Part shown: positions 8,031 to 14,938 of the stretch, piece by piece
How positions within the stretch are numbered: the first letter of the stretch is position 1
Layout: every line of letters starts with the position of its first letter
IMG/VR virus record: IMGVR_UViG_2651869725_000022
Location: 1 to 18,334 of that record
Source: a virus
Lineage: Duplodnaviria; Heunggongvirae; Uroviricota; Caudoviricetes
Strand: one strand, 5' to 3'
DNA length: 18,334 nt
Notes under the pieces: generated by a model
What the model was told of the DNA's origin: nothing
The model's input: the letters and a program-made list of their open reading frames with translations, nothing else
The model's database searches: none
Program-made: the position numbers and the translations under genes

Positions 8031-8524
8031 TAAGCCCCCACGTAATTCCCTGACAGATACCACTCTTCACCCGATGCAGCGCGCTTGCTGCTTTTCCGTA
8101 AGCACCGCTCACGATGCGCCAGAAAATTGTTTCGTTCTGGCTGGGAGTGGCTTTCACGGAATGCCGCCATCCACACGGTTGCAGCACGACGAAATAAGCC
8201 TCTTGACTCCAGTTCTTCAGCCTGGCGGGTCAGGCACAAAATCACCCGGGGATCGTTAGTGCCGACATAGAAATTGCGCACAGGTCTGGTTTCACGAACT
8301 GGTTGTGGTTCCGGCTCCCGCGCTCTCTCAGTCAGGCGCGGGAAATGTCTGCGTGTATCCCCTTCACAACGGTGAGCCACAGGCCCACTCTGACGTAACT
8401 TGCTTGCTGACTGCAGTACGCGCTGCCGTGAGTAACCTGCAAAAGCATCCGCAATGTCTCCGGAAGTACACCCCGGATGGGCTTCAATGAATTTCTGAAC
8501 GTCATTCAAAAGACTCATGATCAC
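8030..8524 (-). CDS. Putative transcriptional regulator (PerC-like C-terminal motif)
   Basis: 164 aa; the C-terminal LESRGLFRRAATVWMAAF resembles the PerC-family signature as I recall it. Translationally coupled to the O-like gene (4-bp overlap) and the Dam gene. Family call is tentative. Confidence 0.4.
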   Translation of the reverse strand: MIMSLLNDVQKFIEAHPGCTSGDIADAFAGYSRQRVLQSASKLRQSGPVAHRCEGDTRRHFPRLTERAREPEPQPVRETRPVRNFYVGTNDPRVILCLTRQAEELESRGLFRRAATVWMAAFRESHSQPERNNFLAHRERCLRKSSKRAASGEEWYLSGNYVGA

Positions 8525-9462
8525 CCCCTGAATCCTGCCGGGATCTGGCTGTAGTCCACGTTGTCGTAACTGGATTTGAAGTACGGGTCTTCGCGTTTTT
8601 CGGTGTACGTGCTGACGGACGGCGATAAGCGCAGGGAAAGCTCATCCCATTTTTCCCGCAGCTTCGACGGGCTGAGCACGTTACGGCACCAGAACGGATC
8701 GCGGCTGACGCGGCTGTACATCTCGCAGATTTGTTTGTGAGTACGACCATCCTGCACACACATCAGGCGAATTTCGTTTGCCCAGGCTGTCCAGTTCGGT
8801 TCTTTGGGACGAACCACCTCGCCGTCACATTCGGCAGCCTGCTCGTACAGGGCGATGATTTTTTTCCAGAGCCACTGTGCGCAGGTCAAATCATCCTGCG
8901 TCCCCCACTGGCGCTTTTTAGGGCTGAATACAACCGCATCAGGATGGCGAGTTAAAAAATCCTGTTCAGCCGTCTGCGTGTCCGGTTGCGAAGCGTCCGG
9001 ACGAGAAGGTTTTTTATCTGACGGATCATGTTTTGATTTTACTGACGGATCCCCGCCAGATTCTGACGGGTGAAAACCCGCTTTTTTGCCAGATTTCGAC
9101 GCATCAAATTTTGACGGGTCAGATTTTGATGCGTCAGATTTTGACGGGTCAGAATCTGACAGTTGAGAAAATGCCGCTGCCTGAAGCTTCGCAACGTTAA
9201 GCTGATAAACATTCGACGCATTGCGGTTACCCTGGCGACGCGCCTTACGCGTTAACCAGCCTTCTGCTTCCAGCCGTGCGATAGCCGTTCTGACGGTACT
9301 CATCCCCGCGCCAATCTGACGGGCAATGGTTTCAATTGATGGCCAGCACACACCTTCGTCATTACTGAAATCAGCCAGGCGGGCCATAATTGCCACGCTG
9401 GATAACTTCATGCCTGATGCAGCGCAACCATCCCATACATAGCCGGTTAATTTAGTGCTCAT
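8521..9462 (-). CDS. Replication initiator, lambda O-like (HTH N-terminal domain, iteron-encoded linker, O-type C-terminal domain)
   Basis: 313 aa. The C-terminal segment (WGTQDDLTCAQW...NWTAWANEIRLMCVQDGRTHKQICEMYSRVSRDPFWCRNVLSPSKLREKWDELS) closely parallels the lambda O C-terminal domain (WGTAEDLTAAEW...NFAGWANDIRLMRERDGRNHRDMCVLFRWACQDNFWSGNVLSPAKLRDKWTQLE) from memory. The central low-complexity SDSDPSKSDASKSDPSKFDASKSG is encoded by direct repeats. Confidence 0.8.
   Translation of the reverse strand: MSTKLTGYVWDGCAASGMKLSSVAIMARLADFSNDEGVCWPSIETIARQIGAGMSTVRTAIARLEAEGWLTRKARRQGNRNASNVYQLNVAKLQAAAFSQLSDSDPSKSDASKSDPSKFDASKSGKKAGFHPSESGGDPSVKSKHDPSDKKPSRPDASQPDTQTAEQDFLTRHPDAVVFSPKKRQWGTQDDLTCAQWLWKKIIALYEQAAECDGEVVRPKEPNWTAWANEIRLMCVQDGRTHKQICEMYSRVSRDPFWCRNVLSPSKLREKWDELSLRLSPSVSTYTEKREDPYFKSSYDNVDYSQIPAGFRG
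9016..9162. repeat. Iteron array (candidate replication origin) inside the O-like gene
   Basis: At least eight copies of a T(C/T)TGAC(G/A)G core; the last five are spaced at exactly 15 bp (cores at 9096, 9111, 9126, 9141, 9156; unit approx GTCAGATTTTGACGG), with further copies at 9018, 9042 and 9063. Moderately AT-rich stretch on the 3' side (8940-9015). Mirrors ori-lambda architecture within O. Confidence 0.6.
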
Positions 9463-9471
9463 GACCGACCT

Positions 9472-9810
9472 CTATTTCCCTGAATTTACGACGAAACTGT
9501 TCGAGCGGGCTGAAGCACTCATGCTCATAGCCTTCGCGGAGGTAGATAACTCGTTGTGTTTCCGGCTCCCAACGAATGACTCTGACGGGCACTCCGTAGT
9601 GATCTTTGAACCAGCGGTTAACTTGTCGCAAAGGACTGTCTCCTTCTGCCGGTTGAAATCACCCACAGCCCACTCAGCAAAGCTGTGGGTTACAATTTCC
9701 CTGTCACCTGGTACATTTACTGCATAGCAATACTCCACCTTCGCTTTTCCACCCGGTACAGGAAGCGCAATCAGTTGCGAGCGACGGTAGTGTGTTGTTA
9801 AACTGTTCAT
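9472..9810 (-). CDS. Hypothetical protein (112 aa), translationally coupled
   Basis: ATG at 9810 overlaps the upstream stop (ATGA) and has GGAG 9 nt upstream. No family recognised. An antisense ORF (9455-9727, plus strand) occupies the same DNA, so the coding strand is not fully certain. Confidence 0.35.
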
Positions 9811-10358
9811 GCGTTAGTTTCTCCACAGTCACGACACGCCACGGCGCCCGGAGCTGCACACTCGCGGGCGTCACTACTTTCTGAAACGCAAAAGATTTTG
9901 TAGACCAGTGCTGCATGCTCCTGCAGCTTCGAAATTGAGAGGTACAGCTCATCGTTAATTGCTGTCTTCTCATGCGGTTCCACTACACCGTCTTCAATTG
10001 CTGAACGAATCTGTTTTGAATAACTGCCGATCTGTTCAATGACTTCCAGCAGGCGTTGGTTGATATCGGCGTTGTCCACATCCTCGACGTCAGGAAGAGA
10101 CACAAAGACGCCATTTGCAGACTGCGCCACAGCATCAGCAATGAAGTGAGTGCCACCAGCACGCTGTAAAACCATTGCCCATCCCAGCGGGAAAATCTGA
10201 TCGCCATCTGCACGAAGGCGGTTGAATAAAGCGTTTTCTGTTACATCGAGCCAGTCAGCCGCTTCAGCGTAACCACCCGGCAACGCCGCGATAGTTTTTC
10301 TGACAGCTTTCACATACCACTTAGGCTGTTTTTCTACTTTCCAGTGATGCTTACCCAC
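9807..10358 (-). CDS. CII-like regulatory protein with extended C-terminal domain
   Basis: Preferred start is the GTG at 10358 (AAGGAG 6 nt upstream); the longer ORF to 10463 would overlap cro. The segment [39 protein letters not shown] parallels the lambda CII HTH region (TEKTAEAVGVDKSQISRWKRDWIPKFSMLLAVLE) from memory. Sits between cro and O as cII does. Confidence 0.45.
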
Positions 10359-10380
10359 GGCTATCTCCTTAAAACTGTGG

Positions 10381-10629
10381 TTACTTTTCATCTGATGAAT
10401 CTTTAATCTTTTGAAAAATATCTGGACGTAATTTTTCTTTTGATATGCCAGTGGTCTTTTCAATGAATATCGAGAGCTTTGCAGGGGGACGCTTTTCTCT
10501 GTTCAACCAGTTCCAGACATGTTGTTGCTTTACTAAATGACCGCTGCTGGCTGTGAGCTTCCGAGCCAATTCTGATTGACCACCAGCCAGAGCGATTGCC
10601 TCCGATAAGGCTAATTGCTCAGGTGTCAT
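10381..10629 (-). CDS. Cro-like repressor (YdaS/Cro-type HTH)
   Basis: 82 aa, divergent from the cI-like gene across a 135-bp operator region; AAGGAG RBS 6 nt upstream of the ATG. HTH-like segment LSEAIALAGGQSELARKLTASSGHLVKQ. Confidence 0.6.
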   Translation of the reverse strand: MTPEQLALSEAIALAGGQSELARKLTASSGHLVKQQHVWNWLNREKRPPAKLSIFIEKTTGISKEKLRPDIFQKIKDSSDEK

Positions 10630-10764
10630 AGCTTTCTCCTTTTTAGGTAGTTAAGTTGTTACGAGTTGCAAGAATACAACATTAACAACTTTTATCACAA
10701 CTTTTAGGTGTTGGAAAGCTAAAACATAAAGTTGTAACCTCACCAAAAAAGAGAGGGATATGTT
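10630..10764. promoter_or_regulatory. Divergent operator/promoter region (OR analogue; pR towards cro, pRM towards cI)
   Basis: Intergenic region between divergent cro-like and cI-like genes. It carries at least five copies of the half-site AAGTTGT / ACAACTT (for example TTAAGTTGTTAC, TTAACAACTTTT, ATCACAACTTTT, AAAGTTGTAACC); the same motif recurs at the pL candidate. Confidence 0.55.
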
Positions 10765-11451
10765 GTGAAAACACTGGCAGAACGATTAAAGATAGGTAGA
10801 GAGAAAGCTGGCATGAGCCAAGCTCAACTAGCTGAAAAAATTGGACTTTCACAACAATCTGTAGCCAAAATAGAGAATGGCGAAACTCTACAACCGCGCA
10901 AAATTAAAGAAATTGCAAAAGTTTTAGGTGTATCACAAAAGTGGTTACAACTTGGTATTGAAGACAACGCATCCATACCTGATCTTGTTGTAAAAGAAGC
11001 AGAAAGCACCGCATTAGACCCCGATATTTTCGTAAACATCCCTGTTTTAGATGTCGAGTTATCGGCAGGTAATGGATGTCTGGCTGAAATAGTTGAATCA
11101 GCTATTGACTGGTTTCCGTTAAGAAGAGCAGATTTGAGAAAATCTGGCGTATGTGCATCTAATGCCAAGATCGTAAAAATATGGGGGAACAGTTTATTAC
11201 CGGTTCTCAATAATGGAGATCTTGTTGCCGTTGATATTTCTCAAACCGTTCCTATTCGTGATGGCGATCTTTATGCCATACGAGATGGTGTATTGCTAAG
11301 GGTTAAAATACTTATCAACTTACCTGACGGTGGCTTGATTCTTAGAAGCTTCAACAAAGATGAGTACCCAGATGAAATACTCACCTTTGAAGATAGACGA
11401 GCCAGAATTCATGTTATAGGTAGGGTATTCTGGTCATCGCGAACTTGGTAA
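10765..11451 (+). CDS. cI-type prophage repressor (HTH-XRE N-terminal domain plus S24 LexA-like autopeptidase domain)
   Basis: 228 aa starting at GTG 10765 (purine-rich RBS upstream). N-terminal HTH (MSQAQLAEKIGLSQQSVAKIENGE), candidate Ala-Gly cleavage site (LSAGNG), catalytic Ser (GNSL) and Lys (LRVK) in S24 arrangement. Confidence 0.85.
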   Translation: MKTLAERLKIGREKAGMSQAQLAEKIGLSQQSVAKIENGETLQPRKIKEIAKVLGVSQKWLQLGIEDNASIPDLVVKEAESTALDPDIFVNIPVLDVELSAGNGCLAEIVESAIDWFPLRRADLRKSGVCASNAKIVKIWGNSLLPVLNNGDLVAVDISQTVPIRDGDLYAIRDGVLLRVKILINLPDGGLILRSFNKDEYPDEILTFEDRRARIHVIGRVFWSSRTW

Positions 11452-12324
11452 TGCATCGAAAAGCATTTCTTCAGAAATAATTTTAAGTTTTGCACCATTA
11501 TCATCCCTATAAGATATAGCTTTTTCGATCTTCCTTCCGTGACTTGAGAATTTCCAATCACGGGAGGAAAGCGTCCCAATTACTAAAAAATCCAACTTTT
11601 GAGTAATTCCACTACTGATGTTCCCACCAGCATTTTTAATCAAATTTTCAACTACGGCTCTCTTTCCTGCAACAAAAGTGCCTGTAAGACAATAGGTTTT
11701 ACCCTCTAACTCTATCGAAGCCCCTACATCAATAGGCAGCCTGGTCGCCAAACCATCCACCACCCCACTTTCCAAGTCACATCCTGTGAAGTCTACTAAT
11801 GCCTTATGTAGAGTTAAACTCTCATCTTCAGTAATAACACCATCTTTAAGAATTTCCTTTACAAGTGCATAAAGTTTTTTTCCTGGGTAGTTGTTCTTCA
11901 AAGCTCCATTTTGCTCAAGCCACCAATTAAGATATCTTATTTCTTCTTGAGTTAAGTTCCGATCAGCAATTAATCCTTTACATAGTCCATTAAGTAAATG
12001 GACATCTACATCCTTGGAGTAAAAATCAATTTCAGGGATATCAAGAATTTCCCTCTGTATTTGGAGAAGGCTATTTTTAAGGTCATCACGTTCTTCTGAT
12101 GTGATTATTCCATCCGCAAGAATATCCGACACCCGTGCTGATAGACTTTTTATAACTCCATTATTGATAATCTGCTTTGCTTCAAGTAACCATGTATCTA
12201 AGTAAAGAACCTCCTCTTCACGGACAACTCCATCTGCAATGATTCCATCAATGATGCTAATCAAGTTAGCAAATAACTTGTCCCGGTTCTGTGTGTAATT
12301 AAAAGCGTAAAGCGCGTCTTCCAT
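11434..12324 (-). CDS. Accessory protein: four TerB-like helical repeats followed by a C-terminal BRCT domain
   Basis: 296 aa; GGAGG RBS 4 nt upstream of the ATG at 12324. Four repeats built on an acidic core (IADGVVREEEVLYL; LADGIITSEERDDL; IADRNLTQEEIRYL; LKDGVITEDESLTL). The C-terminal GKTYCLTGTF...GGNISSGITQKLDFLVIG...ISEEMLFDAL matches the BRCT pattern as seen in NAD-dependent ligase C-termini. AT-rich, convergent with cI and overlapping its 3' end by 18 bp. Confidence 0.65.
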   Translation of the reverse strand: MEDALYAFNYTQNRDKLFANLISIIDGIIADGVVREEEVLYLDTWLLEAKQIINNGVIKSLSARVSDILADGIITSEERDDLKNSLLQIQREILDIPEIDFYSKDVDVHLLNGLCKGLIADRNLTQEEIRYLNWWLEQNGALKNNYPGKKLYALVKEILKDGVITEDESLTLHKALVDFTGCDLESGVVDGLATRLPIDVGASIELEGKTYCLTGTFVAGKRAVVENLIKNAGGNISSGITQKLDFLVIGTLSSRDWKFSSHGRKIEKAISYRDDNGAKLKIISEEMLFDALPSSR

Positions 12325-12380
12325 ACAACCTCCTTTTTTGATAATCCTTGCACTCCTTGGCTACTCGTTCAAACCACATA

Positions 12381-12430
12381 AAGTTGTTGACAACATTCAA
12401 AACCACAATTAAATTACAACTTAAAGGTGT
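12381..12430 (+). promoter_or_regulatory. pL-like early-left promoter with operator half-sites (OL analogue)
   Basis: TTGACA at 12387-12392, 17-bp spacer, TAAATT at 12410-12415. It overlaps the imperfect palindrome AAAGTTGTTGACAACATT and a further ACAACTT copy, the same half-site as in the OR region. Confidence 0.45.
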
Positions 12431-12525
12431 TAAAACGACGAACAGGCAGGACGCCCACGAAGTAGCCGCCGGTGGCGTATGAATGACCGGATGATTCGTT
12501 AAATACTATGTGTAAGAGAGCGCAA

Positions 12526-12729
12526 ATGAACCGTTATTTCACATGCTCGTTTTGTGGCGCAAACGAGCTGCAGGCAAAAAAAATCATCGCCAAAGGCGGA
12601 AAAGATGAAGTTGCTATCTGCTCTGAGTGCGTAGTCTTGTGTGTCGGGGCATTAATCAATATCAGCACAACTATTCAGTTCACACCAAATGAGAATGCGC
12701 CTTTAGATGCGCGGAAATCTGGAGGTTAA
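12526..12729 (+). CDS. Small protein with ClpX-type C4 zinc-finger (ClpX N-domain-like)
   Basis: Preferred start is the ATG at 12526 (MNRYFTCSFCG...). CSFCGANELQAKKIIAKGGKDEVAICSECVVLC parallels the ClpX zinc-binding domain ([30 protein letters not shown]) from memory. First gene downstream of the pL candidate. Confidence 0.55.
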   Translation: MNRYFTCSFCGANELQAKKIIAKGGKDEVAICSECVVLCVGALINISTTIQFTPNENAPLDARKSGG

Positions 12730-12737
12730 AGAACAAA

Positions 12738-13013
12738 ATGAAAGTCCAGATTTTAAACAATAGTGGTGAAGTCGTTTGGTCATACGACATAGCCGCTCCT
12801 GTAGATCAGAGCGGCGATAGCTGGACCAATGGGAAACATCAGATTATGGCTGGAGTTGTATTCTCTTTACGCCGTGCTTTGGAACAGGCTGAAGTATTTC
12901 CATCAGACCCTGAATGGAAATGGCCTTTTTCTATTTGTCCAAATTCGGAGAGTACATTTCAGAAAATTGGTCAGAAAGTCGCACTCGAAGAGCATCAGCC
13001 AACTGTTTCCTGA
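12738..13013 (+). CDS. Hypothetical protein (91 aa)
   Basis: GGAGG RBS 9 nt upstream of the ATG. No family recognised. Its 3' end overlaps the convergent minus-strand ORF by about 83 bp. Confidence 0.4.
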   Translation: MKVQILNNSGEVVWSYDIAAPVDQSGDSWTNGKHQIMAGVVFSLRRALEQAEVFPSDPEWKWPFSICPNSESTFQKIGQKVALEEHQPTVS

Positions 13014-13176
13014 TTTTTTCAGGTAGCTCGTCGGCATCGCAGAAACAACAACGCTCGATCATGTTGAAAGCCGATTCGTAGAACTGTTTCTGCTGAGTGT
13101 CGCTGAGACAGGAAAAGAGCGACGTTACGATGATTTTATTAATTGCATTATCAAGTTCTTTTTCATCAAAAGTCAT
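12931..13176 (-). CDS. Hypothetical protein (81 aa), antisense-oriented within the early-left operon
   Basis: AGGA RBS about 7 nt upstream of the ATG at 13176. Helical-looking sequence with a CCFC motif. Convergent with and overlapping the 91-aa ORF. Confidence 0.4.
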   Translation of the reverse strand: MTFDEKELDNAINKIIVTSLFSCLSDTQQKQFYESAFNMIERCCFCDADELPEKIRKQLADALRVRLSDQFSEMYSPNLDK

Positions 13177-13430
13177 TTGATTTTCCTTTTATGTATACGG
13201 ACTTAAAAGGATACCACCGAGCCTGAAGTGGTGAAAAGACAGGCACATAACAGCTAAGTATTTTCAACCAGAGAGAATCCTTAGCGTTGTGGTGAATGCG
13301 GCTCAGCGCACGCGGGTTAAGGTTGAGGCTGACAGTCGACCTTCTGTGGATACCCACCCGCCAGGTGTGCAACCTTCGCCAGGCACCGGGAGGCACCCGG
13401 CACCACAACTTTATGCTGTGTGTAGTCTTG

Positions 13431-13478
13431 GCGGTACCAGCTTGTACCCTTGCTTCCGGCTGGTACCGCTCTTTTTAC
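13431..13478 (+). terminator. Candidate intrinsic terminator inside the early-left operon (tL-like)
   Basis: Perfect 11-bp stem GCGGTACCAGC (13431-13441) / GCTGGTACCGC (13459-13469) with a 17-nt loop, followed by CTCTTTTTAC. The loop is large for a canonical terminator, hence moderate confidence. Confidence 0.45.
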
Positions 13479-13613
13479 AAAACAGAGAAGAGCATCACCG
13501 GACGACGGGCTCATAACCCAATCCACCCGGGCGGCTGCCACCGCAGGTGTTCTTCTCTGTTTTGTGGAGAAACCAACCGACCTTGCAGGGTCGATATGAT
13601 TAGGAGCAGCAAA

Positions 13614-14048
13614 ATGGCTAGCGAACGCAGTACTGATGTGCAGGCATTTATCGGGGAGCTGGACGGCGGCGTATTTGAAACCAAAATCGGCGCAGTTCTC
13701 AGTGAAGTCGCTTCCGGTGTGATGAACACGAAAACCAAAGGTAAGGTCTCACTCAACCTGGAAATCGAACCGTTTGATGAGAACCGTGTGAAAATCAAAC
13801 ACAAACTCTCATATGTTCGCCCGACTAACCGCGGGAAAATTTCCGAAGAAGACACCACCGAAACGCCGATGTATGTCAATCGCGGTGGTCGCCCGACTAA
13901 CCGCGGGAAAATTTCCGAAGAAGACACCACCGAAACGCCGATGTATGTCAATCGCGGTGGTCGCCTGACTATTCTGCAGGAAGACCAGGGACAATTACTG
14001 ACTCTTGCCGGTGAACCTGACGGAAAACTCCGCGCAGCAGGTCATTAA
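13614..14048 (+). CDS. Hypothetical protein (144 aa) containing a duplicated 24-aa segment
   Basis: Preferred start is the ATG at 13614 with AGGAG 7 nt upstream; the upstream part of the long ORF 13296-14048 is GC-rich and lacks an RBS. Contains the tandem repeat PTNRGKISEEDTTETPMYVNRGGR twice. Confidence 0.55.
   Translation: MASERSTDVQAFIGELDGGVFETKIGAVLSEVASGVMNTKTKGKVSLNLEIEPFDENRVKIKHKLSYVRPTNRGKISEEDTTETPMYVNRGGRPTNRGKISEEDTTETPMYVNRGGRLTILQEDQGQLLTLAGEPDGKLRAAGH
13821..13964. repeat. Perfect 72-bp tandem duplication (2 copies) inside the coding sequence
   Basis: Copy 1 at 13821-13892 and copy 2 at 13893-13964 are identical base for base. A degenerate partial third start (GCCTGACTATTC) follows. 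Confidence 0.9.
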
Positions 14049-14113
14049 TATCGTTCTTAATTAACTGATTATTTATCTCATCACTGAATATCTTTATATA
14101 GTGAGGACTTATT

Positions 14114-14938
14114 ATGTCTCAGAACTTAGACGCAACCGCAATTAATCAAATCCATGCTCTTATTTCTGCTCAGGGTGTTAATGAAATTATCAGTAAGATT
14201 GGTGCCGATGCTGTGGCATTGCCTGAGAATTTCCGCATTCATGATCTGGAAAAATTTAATTTAAATCGCTTCCGTTTCCGTGGTGCGCTTTCCACTGCCA
14301 GCATCGATGACTTTACCCGTTATTCTAAAGATCTTGCAGATGAAGGCACCCGCTGCTTTATCGATGCCGATAATATGCGAGCCGTCAGTGTGCTTAACCT
14401 GGGTACTATTGATGAACCAGGTCACGCAGATAACACCGCCACTCTCAAACTGAAAAAGACAGCACCGTTCTCTGCTCTGTTGTCTGTTAATGGCGAGCGT
14501 AACTCCCAGAAGTCACTGGCAGAATGGATTGAAGACTGGGCCGACTACCTTGTGGGCTTTGATGCTAATGGTGACGCCATTCAGGCAACCAAAGCGGCTG
14601 CGGCGATCCGTAAAATCACAATTGAAGCGAACCAGACCGCTGATTTTGAAGATAATGACTTCAGCGGCAAACGCTCCCTGATGGAGTCTGTCGAAGCGAA
14701 GACCAAAGACATTATGCCAGTGGCATTTGAATTTAAATGCGTTCCGTTTGAAGGTCTGAAAGAACGTCCGTTTAAATTACGCCTCAGCATTATCACTGGC
14801 GATCGTCCTGTACTGGTTCTGCGCATTATTCAGCTGGAAGCGGTGCAGGAAGAAATGGCTAACGAATTTCGTGATCTGCTTGTTGAGAAATTCAAAGACA
14901 GCAAAGTAGAAACCTTTATTGGTACTTTCACCGCCTGA
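14114..14938 (+). CDS. YfdQ-like (DUF2303-type) prophage protein
   Basis: 274 aa with an AGTGAGGA RBS. Length and gene neighbourhood (followed by an HD-domain YfdR-like gene and a 120-aa YfdS-like gene) match the CPS-53-type yfdQ-yfdR-yfdS block as I recall it. Family call is from memory. Confidence 0.5.

Follow-up and report, generated by a model that had tools for sequence, protein, structure and literature searches.

A stand-alone ClpX-type zinc-binding domain encoded by the first gene behind the predicted early-left promoter of a lambdoid Escherichia coli prophage

The stretch of DNA that was analyzed (18,334 nucleotides, hereafter the window) is a lambdoid prophage of E. coli, similar to SfV/CPS-53. 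The analysis was focused on a small open reading frame (ORF) of its plus strand, which we named the finger gene. The features surrounding this gene are listed below with their positions in the window; Q-like, lysis and terminase genes are located farther along the minus-strand right operon.

8521-9462, minus strand: O-like initiator gene of the right operon, with 15-bp iterons inside
9807-10463, minus strand: YmfL/cII-like gene of the right operon
10381-10629, minus strand: cro, right operon
10765-11451, plus strand: cI (S24 type)
11434-12324, minus strand: BRCT-domain gene (296 aa, PHROG 3989) at the place of lambda rexAB, with cI and pL on either side
12373-12430, plus strand: predicted early-left promoter (pL) with two flanking operators, from a sigma-70 match and the operator consensus
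12437-12500, plus strand: conserved structured leader RNA of 64 nt between pL and the finger gene, supported by covariation
12514-12520, plus strand: weak Shine-Dalgarno-like AAGAGAG, 5 nt 5' of the finger ATG, read from the sequence
12526-12729, plus strand: finger ORF, 67 codons followed by TAA, with the 67-aa product MNRYFTCSFCGANELQAKKIIAKGGKDEVAICSECVVLCVGALINISTTIQFTPNENAPLDARKSGG
12535-12663, plus strand: part of the finger ORF encoding the zinc-binding domain (approximately residues 4-46); the tail, residues 50-67, is disordered and not conserved
12544, 12553, 12619 and 12628, plus strand: codons of the predicted zinc-ligand cysteines C7, C10, C32 and C35
12738-13013, plus strand: second ORF of the pL operon (91 aa, PHROG 3195), a homologue of SfV orf33

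An in-frame ATG at position 12508 was ruled out as the start of the finger gene, because all of the relatives start at the equivalent of 12526, where they share the N-terminus MN(x)Y(F/Y)TC, and because in most of them this ATG is preceded by AGGAG, at the position of AAGAGAG in the window. The gene is under purifying selection. When divergent copies were compared over codons 1-46, dN/dS values of 0.08-0.38 were obtained, most pairs being at about 0.1-0.2 and dS being saturated for many of them. The four cysteines C7, C10, C32 and C35 are invariant, and kept in the CxxC...CxxC register, in all members of the family.

The sequence TTGACA-17-TAAATT at 12387-12415 (-35 element at 12387-12392, -10 element at 12410-12415) matches sigma-70 best within the region 10300-14200, and the predicted transcription start is located at approximately 12421-12423. 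The operator consensus ACAACTTWWAGGTGT flanks this promoter at 12373-12387 and 12416-12430, and can also be observed between cro and cI (OR), at 10697-10711 and 10721-10735; 12 matches to the consensus were observed, compared to 1.3 expected by chance. Since the operator copies bracket the promoter and recur between cro and cI, pL is predicted to be repressor-controlled. The interval between pL and position 12526 contains no ORF of at least 40 codons except for the finger frame's own extension. The sequence-only reading had proposed that the gene is the first of the early-left operon, and the analysis bears this out, showing it to be the first gene behind a predicted repressor-controlled pL, from which it would be transcribed once repression is lifted.

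Several other features of the window should be mentioned. The 15-bp iterons in the O-like initiator gene (consensus CAGATTTTGACGGGT, 9013-9164, at least four copies and inverted copies too) coincide with a low-complexity SDPSKSDASKS repeat of the encoded protein, and probably represent the replication origin. The BRCT-domain protein, which may be a prophage-encoded defence moron, weakly matched PDC-S48, a candidate defence family of PADLOC (E 2.4e-7); the PADLOC analysis of the finger gave no match. An additional operator-like site, ACAACTTTATGCTGT, with two mismatches to the OL/OR consensus, is located at 13405-13419, about 1 kb 3' of pL. The ORF at 13296-14048 contains a near-perfect 72-bp tandem duplication (13817-13971, 2.2 copies, 98% matches) that doubles a 24-aa segment, and its counterpart in E. 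coli DETEC-P61 is annotated as frameshifted. Finally, a small convergent gene is located on the minus strand at 12931-13176 (74-81 aa including relatives; PHROG 3311 in the window, BssS family in the related locus L006). Its copies in other relatives are found at 5224-5448 of L005, 5302-5526 of L008 and 4245-4469 of L103. An overlap of this gene with the 3' end of a pL gene, either the first or the second, is a regular feature, and where the finger gene is overlapped in relatives, the extent is constantly 38 nt.

Comparison with domain and structure databases identified the product as a relative of ClpX. The finger matched the Pfam family PF06689 (zf-C4_ClpX) over residues 6-40 with an E value of 1.3e-10 and 41.4 bits, the curated gathering cut-off being 27 bits, and its relatives scored 26-45 bits. 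When PDB sequences were searched with phmmer, ClpX alone was matched, with E values of ~3e-4 for 2ds5 and 1ovx, the entries for the isolated E. coli ClpX zinc-binding domain (ZBD). The NCBIfam clpX (equivalog) models aligned to the finger over their first ~45 positions only (6-48), and in this comparison the AAA+ ATPase module with its ClpP-docking loop was absent from the 67-aa protein. An AlphaFold model built from an 8-sequence alignment (pLDDT 63) was superimposed on the ClpX ZBD crystal structures 2ds5, 2ds6 and 2ds8 with TM scores of 0.77-0.80, an rmsd of 1.5-1.7 Å and 37% identity; with 42 sequences, the finger reached a pLDDT of 80-95, and the tail, from residue 50 on, one of ~50. As the sequence-only reading had stated, the ORF thus carries the N-terminal zinc-binding pattern of ClpX, recovered at profile level by Pfam and phmmer and again in the predicted fold, and nothing else of ClpX. 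Taken together, the sequence comparisons and the models show a protein composed of a predicted ClpX-type treble-clef ZBD and a short, apparently disordered tail, and of nothing more. The identity to the E. coli ClpX ZBD is about 36%, and because of this low value the finger is not a recent capture of the host clpX.

The segment consisting of promoter, leader and finger gene was found in 98 of 5426 complete E. coli genomes (~2%). The domain assignment is already public: in a near-identical prophage of E. coli DETEC-P61 the gene carries the RefSeq name "ClpX C4-type zinc finger protein". The family is also contained in PHROGs 5259 and 20296, both labelled "unknown function". A word-indexed search of 5.8 billion proteins yielded 15 clusters only. 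Every one of them comes from prophages of E. coli or Salmonella, and one is very frequent among monophasic S. Typhimurium prophages; in IMG/VR, 80 finger loci were found. All lambdoid cases have cI (S24) followed, after ~200 bp, by the finger gene. The order cI-finger is constant across immunity types, replication modules (HTH_36, Phg_2220_C) and downstream genes, and the position as first pL gene is kept across genera. Residues 1-46 are conserved, the tails are non-homologous, and the total length of the protein varies from 61 to 147 aa; frameshifted copies (P0008) exist. These observations, together with the evidence for selection, show that the finger gene is a real, conserved and, judging from its predicted promoter, very early phage gene. 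In SfV, the leader and the second ORF are present and the finger gene is absent, with the second ORF located directly 3' of the leader; the finger gene can therefore be regarded as an accessory cassette of ~230 bp. A C-terminal motif, xFxxAP, shared by four relatives, was rejected as a functional element. It falls within the constant 38-nt overlap with the convergent 74-aa gene, and is for this reason probably a by-product.

An exhaustive HMM search of 1.84 billion representative sequences was used to place the family in a wider context. The search yielded 600 matches at E <1e-3, the majority being small proteins with a ZBD that stands alone or in tandem. ClpX proteins proper (~416 aa) reached only ~1e-5, and the nearest relatives of the phage family are other stand-alone or tandem finger proteins. 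Relatives occur almost exclusively in phage contexts, and this holds for all of the single-domain ones that could be placed. In a Mu-like prophage (L010, 3404-4198) the finger gene lies 76 bp after the c repressor gene and is divergent from ner and MuA, and in two high-GC prophages (L107, 3737-5492, and L108, 4747-5270) it directly follows cro, the L107 copy being 169 aa long with a long C-terminal extension. Distant single-domain fingers were also found among the small early genes of virulent-like contigs. The tandem-finger proteins of bacteria sit in ordinary housekeeping neighbourhoods of the chromosome with neither clpX nor clpP nearby, and these neighbourhoods were therefore rejected as a functional clue. 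The top match of the profile search, P0016, is a protein of 2505 aa with 37 ClpX-finger-like repeats; many other proteins contain two to four tandem fingers, and P0037 is a fusion of a pair of fingers with an aspartate carbamoyltransferase-like region. No description or published function of a phage stand-alone ClpX finger was found in the literature searched, and the fixed genomic position, the phage-wide occurrence of free ZBDs and the predicted divergence of the ligand patch (see below) likewise had no earlier description in the searched sources.

The leader RNA begins ~15 nt after the predicted +1, and its predicted pairings are the following.

12437-12442 with 12495-12500, plus strand: helix P1
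12445-12447 with 12453-12455, plus strand: small hairpin
12469-12473 with 12486-12490, plus strand: helix P2

The core of the leader, AGGCAGGACGCCCACGAAGUAGCC, is nearly invariant, and compensatory double changes were observed in 10 of the 14 predicted pairs across 14 phages. All copies scored 68-93 bits with the covariance model, with one copy per phage, and no second (pR-side) copy was found in the window. The leader is present in 1394 of the 5426 complete E. coli genomes (~26%), with no annotated feature under it among the matches listed, and the comparison with Rfam returned nothing relevant at either gathering or permissive thresholds. Its identification as an HK022-type put RNA was rejected, as neither BLAST nor the covariance model gave a match in the nun-cI-cro region of HK022. 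Downstream of cI, the leader was found in SfV, SfII, SfIV, ST64B, mEp237 and mEp460, and also in SPN3UB, ZF40, YeP1, AH07 and an Aeromonas phage; it is additionally present in virulent T5-like Providencia phages and in an autographivirid (T7-like). Its position, together with its presence in phages without an annotated N, suggests a cis action on the host RNA polymerase, and we consider it a candidate cis-acting antiterminator or RNA-polymerase-modifying RNA. In the T5-like Providencia phage PSTCR5 (L097, ~1256-1275), a canonical boxA-like sequence, CGCTCTTTAA, directly follows the leader, and this arrangement points tentatively to a connection with Nus-factor antitermination. The finger gene does not depend on the leader, which forms part of its context and may equal or exceed it in interest.

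The sequence-only reading had described the finger as a mimic of the ClpX N-domain. The family was compared with ClpX residue by residue. A hydrophobic patch of the ClpX ZBD, with F16 and I46 among its residues, is bound by lambda O, SspB, RssB and trigger factor, and the ZBD is required for the degradation of lambda O (PMC7804408). The equivalent of F16 is F9 of the finger, which is invariant in the phage family, and F16 is the sole known ligand-patch residue that is kept. The equivalents of I46 (V/T/I/A/K/L) and L42 (L/S/R/T/A/K/Q) are variable, an invariant Ala stands in place of Y34, and three extra residues, specific to the family, are inserted in the beta-hairpin (AKGG(K)DE). In addition, the phage proteins conserve residues of their own, T6, E14, K23-G24, V37, V40, I44 and N45; at T6, E14, V37, V40, I44 and N45 ClpX is polar, and V37, V40 and I44 are extra conserved hydrophobic helix positions with respect to the ClpX ZBD. 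The invariant F9 speaks for mimicry; the unconstrained I46 and L42 equivalents, the Ala in place of Y34, the hairpin insertion, the identity of ~36% and the precedent of CsfB (see below) weigh against a strict form of it. Because the conserved surface of the finger differs from that of ClpX, the protein probably has its own, narrower set of partners, and is probably not a general decoy.

Several classical phage regulators, among them lambda O, the Mu repressor, MuA and cleaved repressor fragments, are under the control of ClpXP, the Mu repressor and MuA being classical ClpX clients, and the ZBDs of ClpX are dimerisation domains. We tentatively incline to the proposal that the finger modulates ClpX N-domain-dependent recognition, with a partner specificity of its own. 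The protein would be a small protein-protein interaction module interfering with this recognition, and two routes can be envisaged. It would either compete with the ClpX N-domain for docking adaptors or substrates (candidates are the SspB tail, RssB and substrates that depend on the N-domain, initiator-like or Mu-type proteins being examples), or bind to that domain of ClpX itself, which is conceivable because ZBDs are dimerisation domains. The outcome would be a transient stabilisation of at least one ClpXP-sensitive phage or host protein during the lysis-lysogeny decision, and the action of the finger on ClpX would parallel that of lambda cIII on FtsH. We count in support of a role at ClpX the homology, which is to ClpX specifically, the purifying selection on the finger, its constant place as first pL gene, the invariant F9 and the location of the finger gene beside phage switch genes in three architectures, including the Mu-like one. 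Moreover, the isolated E. coli ClpX ZBD supplied in trans inhibits sigma-S degradation mediated by RssB in vitro, an inhibition that needed a roughly 10- to 30-fold excess (PMC7226468). Since a free ClpX ZBD can inhibit adaptor-dependent degradation in vitro, a decoy function of the finger is plausible by analogy; the same idea is weakened by the retention of F16 only, by the hairpin insertion and by the presence of at least three unrelated types of replication initiator beside the finger gene. For the last of these reasons, a specific link to the O-like initiator, which the sequence-only reading had named as one protein that might be stabilised, was not supported, and a linkage to any one replication initiator was rejected. 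The N-terminus of the commonest initiator, MSTKL.., bears a loose and weak resemblance to the N-degron of Dps and lambda O. The broader view that stand-alone fingers beside switch genes form a widespread class of ClpX-specific phage anti-adaptors or decoys is rather unlikely, and in the literature searched no phage-encoded ClpX-specific inhibitor or anti-adaptor was found.

It is also quite possible that the phages have reused the scaffold, in which case the finger would be a compact, zinc-stabilised and possibly dimeric module whose target has no relation to ClpX; a phage regulator or a host factor of transcription or division would be examples. The family-specific conserved surface, unlike the ClpX ligand patch, would fit this explanation, as would the hundreds of stand-alone and tandem fingers outside ClpX, some of them in housekeeping neighbourhoods, and the anti-sigma factor CsfB provides both a precedent and a parallel (PMC5890618). 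In related phages, moreover, the slot behind the leader holds other small host-takeover genes, such as Kil in mEp237, and in the high-GC prophages the finger occupies a cII-like slot after cro and has a longer C-terminal part. On the other hand, the sequence similarity seen with Pfam and PDB is specifically to ClpX, whereas CsfB is similar in fold only, and F9, which is invariant, is the counterpart of F16, a ligand contact of ClpX; the near-neutral protein, with no arginine-rich or basic surface, also speaks against a nucleic acid as the target. Much less credit is given to an adaptor or anti-repressor function, in which the finger would dock on ClpX and the variable tail would bring a particular target to degradation, for instance the repressor of the prophage or a defence protein of the host. 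The architecture of a constant finger and a variable tail, and the repressor gene that always adjoins the finger gene, are in line with it. We nevertheless consider it improbable, as the tails are disordered and non-homologous and those of several variants just run into the 38-nt overlap with the convergent gene, which explains the only C-terminal motif that is shared; in addition, a ZBD supplied in trans is not known to dock on the ClpX ring.

An explanation linked to RNA, in which the finger binds the leader RNA or RNA polymerase and thereby modulates early antitermination or its own translation, with lambda N, HK022 Nun and the Mu Com zinc finger as comparators, was judged highly improbable. 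The gene does occupy the position of N and Nun, the leader core ends 32-41 nt before the finger ATG in 77 of 79 loci, and the related phages examined have no annotated N homologue. Such a role is nevertheless disfavoured because the leader is 14 times commoner than the finger gene (1394 versus 98 E. coli genomes), because finger genes without a leader exist (L101/L102, L010 and L105-L108), and because the near-neutral protein has no arginine-rich motif; in addition, no match to the Com or N families was obtained. The least credible explanation is that of a spurious or decaying ORF without function. The shortness of the ORF, the weak Shine-Dalgarno sequence in the window and the existence of frameshifted copies (P0008) would be expected in that case. 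It is essentially refuted by the dN/dS of ~0.1-0.2 for most pairs, with synonymous sites saturated for many, and is further opposed by the four invariant cysteines and by a position conserved across genera, so that its probability is negligible.

If the stand-alone fingers beside switch genes tune how stable ClpXP-controlled regulators are, they would be a ClpXP counterpart of lambda cIII and FtsH. An action of the finger on ClpX would bring a new layer into the lysis-lysogeny decision and provide a natural tool to block N-domain-dependent degradation. If the finger does not act on ClpX, it would be a clean example of the reuse of a domain scaffold.

Among known systems, the closest is the ClpX ZBD itself (PF06689; PDB 1OVX, 2DS5-2DS8), with which the finger shares the predicted zinc ligands CxxC-(21)-CxxC, the motifs CSFCG, K(I/L)IA and IC.ECV.LC, and, by prediction, the treble-clef fold. 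It differs in being a free, phage-encoded protein of 67 aa without the AAA+ module, and in the hairpin insertion and the patch substitutions described above. Lambda N and HK022 Nun are positional analogues, each being encoded by the first gene 3' of pL; unlike them, the finger has no arginine-rich motif and no nut boxA/boxB, and its gene is dispensable for phages with the same leader. Lambda cIII inhibits FtsH, and T4 PinA and T7 gp4.5 inhibit Lon. These small early phage proteins, which block a host AAA+ protease and in this way shield proteins of the phage or the host, are functional analogues of the proposed activity only, as they target other proteases and have no sequence or fold relation to the finger; cIII, like the finger, is encoded in the pL operon. 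The anti-adaptors IraD, IraM and IraP are likewise small proteins that stabilise a ClpXP substrate, in their case by blocking its delivery by an adaptor, and it has been proposed that IraD and the ClpX ZBD share a docking site on RssB (PMC7226468). The Ira proteins are host-encoded, their target is established, and their folds are unrelated to that of the finger. Finally, the Bacillus subtilis anti-sigma factor CsfB (Gin) is a dimeric treble-clef protein structurally similar to the ClpX N-terminal domain; it is ~20% identical to ClpX, its evolutionary relatedness is doubted, and its function is unrelated to ClpX (PMC5890618). CsfB and the finger are both free-standing small treble-clef proteins, by prediction in the case of the finger, which is a clear sequence homologue of ClpX.
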